IMG/VR virus record: IMGVR_UViG_2534681988_000034
Reading direction: 5' to 3' (one strand)
Length of the DNA: 8,554 nucleotides
Source of the DNA: a virus
Lineage: Duplodnaviria; Heunggongvirae; Uroviricota; Caudoviricetes
Under the pieces are notes generated by a model. It saw only the letters and a list, made by a program, of their open reading frames with translations. It did not search any database and was not told where the DNA came from. The translations under genes and the position numbers were made by a program. Positions 7,759 to 8,424 of this stretch are shown in pieces (positions within the stretch are counted from its first letter, which is position 1; the number at the start of each line of letters is the position of its first letter).

Positions 7759-8424
7759 ATGGCAAACACTGCTGAGATATTCAATTTTCCAGTGCCGGAT
7801 GCGGCACAAAAGGAGCCGCGCGTGGCAGATCTCGATGATGGTTATACGCGCATTGCAAATGAGTTGCTGGAAGCTGTAATGCTGGCCGGATTAACACAGC
7901 ACCAGCTTCTGGTCTTCCTGGCTGTCATGCGCAAAACATATGGCTTTAATAAAAAACTGGACTGGGTGAGCAACGAGCAACTTTCCGAGTTGACCGGGAT
8001 ATTGCCGCACAAGTGTTCTGCTGCAAAAAGTGTTCTGGTAAAGCGTGGGATTTTTATTCAGAGCGGGCGGAATATCGGCATTAATAATGTGGTCAGTGAA
8101 TGGTCAACATTACCCGAATCAGGTAAGAAAAATAAAGTTTACCTGAAAGAGGTAAATTTACCTGAATCAGGTAAGAAAAGTTTACCCAAATCAGGTAAAG
8201 GCACTTACCCGAATCAGGTAAACACAAAAGACAAACTAACAAAAGACAATATAAAACCTTATTCGTCCGAGAATTCTGGCGAATCCTCTGACCTGCCAGA
8301 AAACGACCTTCCTGTGGTGAAAGCGGATGCTGCGATTCAGAGCGGCAGCAAGTGGGGGACAGCAGAAGACCTGACCGCCGCAGAGTGGATGTTTGTGAAC
8401 CGCCCCGGAAATCCTGGAGACTAA
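7759..8424 (+). CDS. O: Replication initiator O-like protein, 3'-truncated by IS insertion
   Basis: Start at [10 protein letters not shown] (ATG 7759-7761, GGGAGG RBS 4 nt upstream). Strong similarity to lambda O from memory (…[14 protein letters not shown]…RKTYG.NK…, …[43 protein letters not shown]). Similarity ends after AEWMF at about 8395; the last 9 codons (VNRPGNPGD) and the stop at 8422-8424 are read from the IS terminal repeat. Confidence 0.85.
8110..8221. repeat. Origin of replication iterons (5 copies of a ~17-bp palindromic repeat TTACCyGAATCAGGTAA) inside O, followed by an AT-rich stretch
   Basis: Copies at 8110-8126 (TTACCCGAATCAGGTAA), 8139-8155 (TTACCTGAAAGAGGTAA), 8158-8174 (TTACCTGAATCAGGTAA), 8182-8198 (TTACCCAAATCAGGTAA), 8205-8221 (TTACCCGAATCAGGTAA), then A-rich 8222-8260. 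Same arrangement as ori-lambda iterons within O, but with a different repeat sequence. Confidence 0.7.

Follow-up and report, generated by a model that had tools for sequence, protein, structure and literature searches.

Five palindromic sites as the probable iterons of a lambda-type replication origin inside the interrupted O gene of a lambdoid prophage

Analysis of an 8,554-bp stretch of viral DNA (IMG/VR record IMGVR_UViG_2534681988_000034; the whole stretch is referred to here as the window) revealed an O-type initiator gene in which an imperfect palindrome of 17 bp occurs five times, and these five palindromes are very probably the iterons of a lambda-type replication origin. The identification is based on the presence of five sites, far above chance, in a Phage_rep_O gene and just where phage 434 has its annotated gpO sites, together with the AT-rich box, the spacing, the conservation of the sites, their covariation with helix 3 of the O N-domain and the P gene found in intact relatives. 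By every DNA-level criterion tested (number, size and location of the palindromes, their phasing, and the adjoining AT-rich region) the window is a lambda-type origin. The O gene itself is cut short in this copy by an insertion sequence.

The mechanism presented here is taken by analogy from lambda (PMC7466680, PMC3349717, PMC8022706); the anatomy, conservation and covariation were computed in this study. On this analogy, winged-helix dimers of the O N-terminus would bind each 17-bp palindrome, with one helix 3 per TTACC/GGTAA half-site, and the four phased core sites (19, 24, 23) together with the extra upstream site would form an O-some. The O-some would then stress the adjacent A-rich 37-bp element and cause its unwinding, after which the O C-terminal domain would recruit P with the host DnaB helicase.

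The O gene, the iteron array and the AT-rich element

The O-type initiator gene at 7759..8395 (plus strand) represents the 5' two-thirds of O, codons 1-212; its reading frame continues for nine IS-derived codons past 8395 and stops at 8424. The gene was identified by its matches to Pfam Phage_rep_O (PF04492, aa 21-115, E = 4e-34) and to PHROG 277 'replication initiation O-like' (E = 3e-102). Phage 4A7 has an intact O of 309 aa, and across residues 1-212, which the two proteins share, their identity is ~96%; the alignment tool gives 95% when the IS-derived tail is counted.

Two candidate starts were observed for O. The start at 7669 is used by RefSeq and phage annotations of relatives, overlaps the upstream stop as ATGA and gives a 339-aa protein; the start at 7759 gives 309 aa when the gene is intact. 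The true start is likely to be 7759, since the N-terminus read from this position resembles lambda MTNTAKILNF, GGAGGA is present just 5' of the ATG, and a pO-like promoter lies over the ATG on the opposite strand. This candidate promoter (7756..7784, minus strand), a consensus match only (TTGAAT-17-CATAAT with extended TG), is sigma-70-like and points leftward with its -10 over the O start codon. Its placing is the same as that of lambda pO/oop, where the pO -10 at 38684-38688 overlaps the O start (PMC3349717). An Rfam scan of the window found no family, leaving an OOP-like RNA unconfirmed, and comparison of the cII-O spacer with the phi80 M3/oop region gave no convincing alignment.

The winged-helix origin-binding domain of O (aa 21-115; 7819..8103, plus strand) is placed N-terminally, as in lambda-type origins, by the Phage_rep_O match and by an AlphaFold2 model. 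The model is of moderate confidence (core pLDDT 70-80, mean 52.9) and predicts helices at residues 47-61, 72-79 and 83-95 and a beta wing at 99-108. The helix at aa 83-95 (8005..8043, plus strand) is the predicted recognition helix, and it covaries with iteron class. A Foldseek search of the model against the PDB returned weak, generic winged-helix matches (MarR, CRP; E ~0.01), which support the predicted fold class and nothing beyond it; no relevant match was found when solved structures were searched by sequence with the O N-domain.

The palindromes of the array have the form TTACCY-N5-AGGTAA in the window and are given here without strand. Iteron 1 (8110..8126, TTACCCGAATCAGGTAA) is an extra upstream copy located 29 bp before iteron 2. 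Iteron 2 (8139..8155, TTACCTGAAAGAGGTAA) has a divergent centre that is kept as such in relatives, and iteron 3 (8158..8174, TTACCTGAATCAGGTAA) is the most symmetrical of the five. They are followed by iteron 4 (8182..8198, TTACCCAAATCAGGTAA) and by iteron 5 (8205..8221, TTACCCGAATCAGGTAA), which abuts the AT-rich region. The start-to-start spacing of the array is thus 29, 19, 24 and 23 bp.

A search of the whole 8,554-bp window with TTACCYRAAWSAGGTAA, allowing at most one mismatch, matched the five iterons only, and no match was found in 200 dinucleotide-preserving shuffles of the window. The same five sites were returned by TTACC-N7-GGTAA with at most one mismatch, for which 0.13 sites are expected in the window. 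The pattern search and the shuffles confirm the five repeats at 8110, 8139, 8158, 8182 and 8205 reported by an earlier sequence-only reading of this DNA. The consensus TTACCyGAATCAGGTAA proposed in that reading is exact for the copies at 8110, 8158 and 8205, but the copy at 8182 departs from it by an A at position 7 and the copy at 8139 by its centre, GAAAGAG. The description of the spacing as irregular did not hold: the last four copies are separated by 19, 24 and 23 bp, against 20, 24 and 23 bp in lambda/434, and are phased about two helical turns apart, as expected of a lambda-type origin. Such an origin is also expected to have at least three intragenic palindromes of ~17-19 bp located 3' of the N-domain, and five are present here.

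The AT-rich, A-skewed region at 8222..8258 (no strand), the presumed unwinding element, starts with the box ACACAAAAGACA. Its presence after the repeats had been claimed from the letters and is borne out by a GC content of 25% at 8220-8259, where the top strand is strongly A-rich; as in a lambda-type origin, the region adjoins the last iteron. A 15-bp direct repeat occurs inside it (8224-8238 and 8239-8253), and the box belongs to this repeat. Among 42 distinct relatives, two of the 37 positions of the element are polymorphic, so that it is constrained equally to the iteron arms. The box ACACAAAAGACA is common to all O-type origins examined with the exception of phi80 (L171). In the form ACACAAAAGA(C/A)A it encodes NTKD and is present directly after the last iteron in every class examined except phi80, and the ACACAAAAGA box is kept even where the O C-terminal domain and the helicase partner differ.

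The array of the window occurs at the same place as the four iterons of lambda/434, inside O and right after the Phage_rep_O domain. In phage 434 the four annotated gpO sites directly follow the SEW motif of the N-domain and are followed by ACACAAAAGACA; the iterons of the window start 7 nt past the SEW motif, as in 434/lambda. Imperfect palindromes, a core spacing of ~20, 24, 23 and an AT-rich element beginning with ACACAAAAGACA are shared between the origins of lambda, 434 and the Stx phages 933W and P27 and the window. From the AT-rich box onward the O DNA is ~90% identical to lambda/434, and intact relatives have a lambda-like O C-terminal domain with the P gene downstream, whereas the O N-domain, upstream of the box, is only 48% identical to that of lambda. 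The iteron is TTACCYGAATCAGGTAA (17 bp) in the window and ATCCCTCAAAACGAGGGA in lambda, and helix 3 reads HKCSAAKS here and KRCNEAKL in lambda; the window is thus outside the rep-lambda class with its ATCCCTCAAAACGAGGGA consensus. Judged by these identities, the N-domain and the iterons are one exchangeable unit in a classical lambdoid mosaic. The O proteins of lambda and Stx phages bind such iterons, the number of sites ranging from 4 to 6 (PMC7466680): four in lambda, six in Stx phages, and five here.

Iteron classes, the recognition helix and distribution

Iteron classes were identified by an automated half-site search and counter in ~75 O-type loci, some of which were left unclassified. 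Class A, represented by the window, is TTACC-N7-GGTAA, with HKCSAAKS in helix 3 at 13 of 13 loci. Class B (TTACC-N5-GGTAA; P22) has TKCSTA(K/R)N (9 loci), and class B6 is TTACC-N6-GGTAA. Class C (TTAGC-N7-GCTAA; HK97, SEN34) has (H/Y/S/R)THxxxxx (23 loci), class D (GTCAC-N7-GTGAC; mEp043/Sf101 type) QKVNxxKN (9 loci), class E (ATCCCTC..GAGGGAT; lambda) KRC(N/S)EA (4 loci) and class F (GAGAC..GTCTC; Morganella) QNVNKAK (5 loci). A further class is represented by phi80 with the iteron TTCCCGAAAACGGGAA. The spacing 20, 24, 23 was found in most of the O-type origins examined, and most iteron classes share it together with the ACACAAAAGA box.

Comparison of the ~75 O homologues, of which some loci were left unclassified, revealed that the first eight residues of helix 3 sort perfectly by iteron class. 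HKCSAAKS occurs only with class-A iterons, and every other class has different helix motifs. With helix 3 left out of the comparison, loci from Arsenophonus and Sodalis share only 65-67% identity with the window but still combine HKCSAAKS with class-A iterons; P22-like and Yersinia loci, at 68-70% on the same measure, have other helices and other iterons. Across the loci compared, iteron class follows helix 3 and not overall domain similarity. The comparison is good evidence for recognition of these iterons by the O N-domain, and we infer their specific binding by O from the position of the sites and from the fact that helix 3 and iteron class covary completely. It has been reported that O-like proteins vary by origin-binding specificity (PMC8022706).

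The combination of TTACC-N7-GGTAA and HKCSAAKS is best read as a specificity class apart from those of lambda, phi80, P22 and HK97, since the iteron and the recognition helix are both unlike those of lambda. The suggestion of a distinct O/ori specificity type made in the sequence-only reading is supported in this respect, the recognition helix differing along with the iteron. The comparison with known ori iterons that it proposed was carried out for lambda and phi80, and also for P22 and HK97, and the sequences differ.

Among the classical phages the closest N-domain is that of P22, ~65% identical to the window's. The P22 gene 18 origin has the same half-sites, TTACC/GGTAA, in four copies at 20, 24, 23, and shares the AT-rich box, but the half-sites are separated by 2 bp less (TTACC-N5-GGTAA), helix 3 is TKCSTAKN, and the partner of its C-terminal domain is a DnaB-type helicase (gene 12) in place of P. 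The window is therefore not of the P22 gene-18 class, having a spacer of 7 bp instead of 5 and HKCSAAKS in helix 3. The O origin of HK97, found also in SEN34, Yersinia phage 21.09 and many prophages, has the same 17-bp architecture (5+7+5), spacing and box, but its half-sites are TTAGC/GCTAA against TTACC/GGTAA here, and its helix 3 begins HHTH(V/C)C; the change between C and G in the half-site and the different helix place the window outside the HK97 O class. In phi80 gene 15, four annotated gp15 sites are located inside the initiator gene, as those of the window are in O, but the iteron is a 16-bp sequence and the N-domain is only 40% identical to the window's. Iteron plasmid origins (pSC101, R6K, F, P1) resemble the window in that a winged-helix initiator, Rep, binds repeated sites flanked by an AT-rich element for unwinding. 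In plasmids, Rep monomers bind direct repeats that lie beyond the rep gene and also serve in copy-number control through handcuffing, whereas the sites of the window are palindromes inside the initiator gene.

Absence of the repeats from homologous O genes, named beforehand as evidence that would speak against an origin, was not observed among close relatives: the five-site layout (29, 19, 24, 23) is present in 79 of 80 IMG/VR loci with a close N-domain. The sole exception has lost one site through a 24-bp in-frame deletion. The N-domains of these 80 loci are 85-100% identical to that of the window (at least 95% in 78 of them); being near-identical, the loci were used for polymorphism counts and not for covariation, and diversity was taken from a contig scan with one genome per species. 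The same O occurs in phages 4A7, Lambda_4C10, Perceval, 1W, 3W and the PhiR series with 97-98% DNA identity. The one-genome-per-species data revealed class-A iterons in eight further genera (Enterobacter, Kluyvera, Klebsiella, Pseudocitrobacter, Pantoea, Providencia, Arsenophonus and Sodalis).

Class-A copy number ranges from 4 to ~11 among 13 loci from diverse Enterobacterales. Relatives with four copies (Pantoea, Providencia) have no upstream site, which indicates that 8139-8221 is the core of the array and that the copy at 8110 is an extra site of the kind that Stx phages also have (PMC7466680). Arrays grow when units of 48 or 24 bp are duplicated in tandem and in frame, and the length of the initiator linker therefore varies with iteron number. 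Expanded arrays were observed in Trabulsiella guamensis (L104, 1019-1185; 7 copies), Kluyvera sichuanensis (L093, 1052-1260; 9 copies) and Sodalis (L108, 1037-1290; ~11 copies).

Two further kinds of O-type locus were noted in the scan. In two of the unclassified loci, from Enterobacter sichuanensis (L095) and Klebsiella grimontii (L097), at ~1045-1300, an O-type N-domain that is 68-74% identical to the window's and has TRCSTAKN in helix 3 is fused to an unrelated C-terminus; neither iterons nor an AT-rich box were found downstream of the N-domain in these two loci, which may represent a repurposed origin-binding domain. Genes that match the lambda-type O of 434 with 98-99% identity were found on short or low-coverage contigs (L139, L142-L149, L151, L152, L154, L155 and L169) of unrelated taxa (Shewanella, Pseudomonas, Leeuwenhoekiella, Neobacillus, Oceanobacillus, Bradyrhizobium, Paenibacillus and Ruminococcus). 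These are most likely lambda DNA contamination of the assemblies.

A full-text literature search for the class-A iteron sequence found no paper, and further literature searches found descriptions of lambda, Stx and P22 only; the records of 4A7 and Klebsiella phage GZ7 name the gene simply a replication or O protein and mark no origin. The origin class is common and apparently undescribed. The origin design itself has been textbook knowledge since the lambda, phi80 and P22 origins were compared, and because the principle is long known the present results carry limited weight as a discovery; only the class table and the helix-3 correlation are modestly new. For annotation, they define a TTACC-N7-GGTAA/HKCSAAKS class that is common in prophages of E. 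coli and other Enterobacterales. The table of helix 3 against half-sites, covering about eight classes, offers testable predictions on how O-type initiators distinguish origins, and this specificity is relevant to whether the many lambdoid prophages of STEC strains are compatible in replication or interfere with one another.

State of the interrupted copy

The match to intact O stops at 8395, codon 212, where the left end of an IS3-family element (IS1203/IS629-like; 8396..8554, plus strand) interrupts the gene. The terminal repeat TGAACCGCCCCGG starts at 8396, the ATG of the transposase orfA is at 8451, and thousands of E. coli records contain IS1203-family copies that match 8380-8554 with 98% identity. 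This insertion, which cuts O at 8395/8396, was overlooked in the sequence-only reading. The O of the window is thus without its C-terminal, P-binding half, and the region for helicase recruitment, present in intact relatives, is missing. The origin DNA is intact, and its own O probably at most binds it without loading a helicase. Because the insertion removes the P-binding domain, this copy of the origin is probably orphaned, and the truncated O suggests a prophage without autonomous replication after induction.

The intD-like prophage integrase gene at 1-1164 (minus strand) abuts tRNA-Arg next to fimZ in related genomes (L009 flanks), which places the window at this attachment site, as the left arm of a lambdoid prophage. 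Positions 1-8395 are 100% identical to a prophage with intact O in E. coli O26 RM8426; that prophage, integrated at tRNA-Arg beside fimZ, is also carried by numerous related isolates of clinical and bovine origin. In several related strains it contains additional IS3/IS600 insertions.

It is more probable than not that the origin in the window is at present a dead relic whose iterons persist for want of time to decay. This is in line with the cut at codon 212, with the complete identity of 1-8395 to prophages with intact O, and with the occurrence of the exact O::IS junction as one contiguous match in none of 5,426 complete E. coli genomes, from which the insertion is probably recent and private or strain-specific. 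Such a relic concerns present activity only and is compatible with the identification of the repeats as iterons. It is also set against the fact that class-A O is common in E. coli, so that the origin could respond to class-A O-P in trans and be fired by the O of a co-resident or superinfecting phage. One candidate for the junction (H33) was rejected as a different prophage with a different truncated O, and two 100% matches to the whole window (H99, H100) proved to be stitched from separate pieces, with O intact.

A more speculative and unlikely reading, in its two parts taken jointly, is that the origin and the O fragment form a decoy or dominant-negative module directed at the same origin class, and that the classes represent a natural O recognition code. 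The O fragment retains the DNA-binding domain and the linker and is without the P-binding domain, and the decoy would be analogous to the iteron-dependent 'inhibition phenotype' known for lambda (PMC3349717); if true, it would interfere with the replication of co-resident or superinfecting phages of the same class. Class A differs from HK97 by one bp per half-site and from P22 by 2 bp in half-site spacing, and under a recognition code these half-site or spacing changes would be matched by the changes in helix 3.

Selection on the DNA and other readings of the palindromes

It had been claimed that the iterons translate to a repeated LPESGKK-like peptide in the O linker. In the O frame, iterons 1, 3 and 4 indeed read LPESGK, LPESGK and LPKSGK, but iterons 2 and 5, offset from that frame by two bases, give the unrelated VYLKEVN and TYPNQVN. 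The other part of the claim, that the iterons encode the O linker, agrees with the AlphaFold2 model, in which the iteron-encoded peptide (aa 118-155) has pLDDT ~40 and is predicted to be disordered, as would fit a flexible linker. The iterons of lambda occupy all three frames. With iterons in two frames here and three in lambda, the repeat is, on this comparison, a DNA-level feature and not a peptide repeat, with selection acting on the DNA.

Analysis of 52 distinct class-A iterons from 13 loci revealed that positions 1-5 (TTACC), 8-9 (AA) and 13-17 (GGTAA) are near-invariant and that the flanks are unconstrained. In the 42 distinct close relatives, polymorphic positions are found at 3 of 50 in the iteron arms, 8 of 35 in the centres, 8 of 27 in the spacers and 19 of 102 in the neighbouring coding sequence; the arms thus differ from all other positions (35 of 164; Fisher p = 0.011). 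A requirement of O for a repeated LPESGKK-like linker peptide, with the palindromes as a by-product of coding, could draw on the three in-frame copies of five and on the predicted disorder, which resembles a low-complexity linker. It is nevertheless very improbable, since the two remaining copies are out of frame, the conserved unit is the DNA palindrome with arms near-invariant whatever the frame, other classes hold the DNA spacing with wholly different sequences, and the sites of lambda are spread over three frames.

Equally hard to credit is that the palindromes bind another protein, such as a repressor, Cro, a CII-like protein or a host factor, and regulate transcription through O. Palindromes of 17 bp are typical of dimeric helix-turn-helix regulators, and genes for a CI-like repressor, a Cro-like protein and a phi80-type CII are located just upstream. 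The iteron motif, however, has no further copy in the window, not even between cI and cro, the expected place for operators. It travels with the O N-domain despite differing upstream regulatory genes, as in Klebsiella phage GZ7 (short CII) and in SEN34/HK97-type contexts, and it covaries with helix 3 of O. The repeats were rejected as transposon or MITE ends, as they are terminal to no mobile element and the IS end at 8396 is of unrelated sequence.

The genes upstream of O encode a CI-like S24 repressor, a Cro-like protein and, in the cII position (7133-7672, plus strand), a 179-aa protein with a YdaT_toxin domain (Pfam E = 7e-30). The last is 66% identical to the 180-aa CII of phi80, which makes it a phi80-type (long) CII and not a lambda-type one. 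Its RefSeq name is 'toxin YdaT domain-containing protein'.
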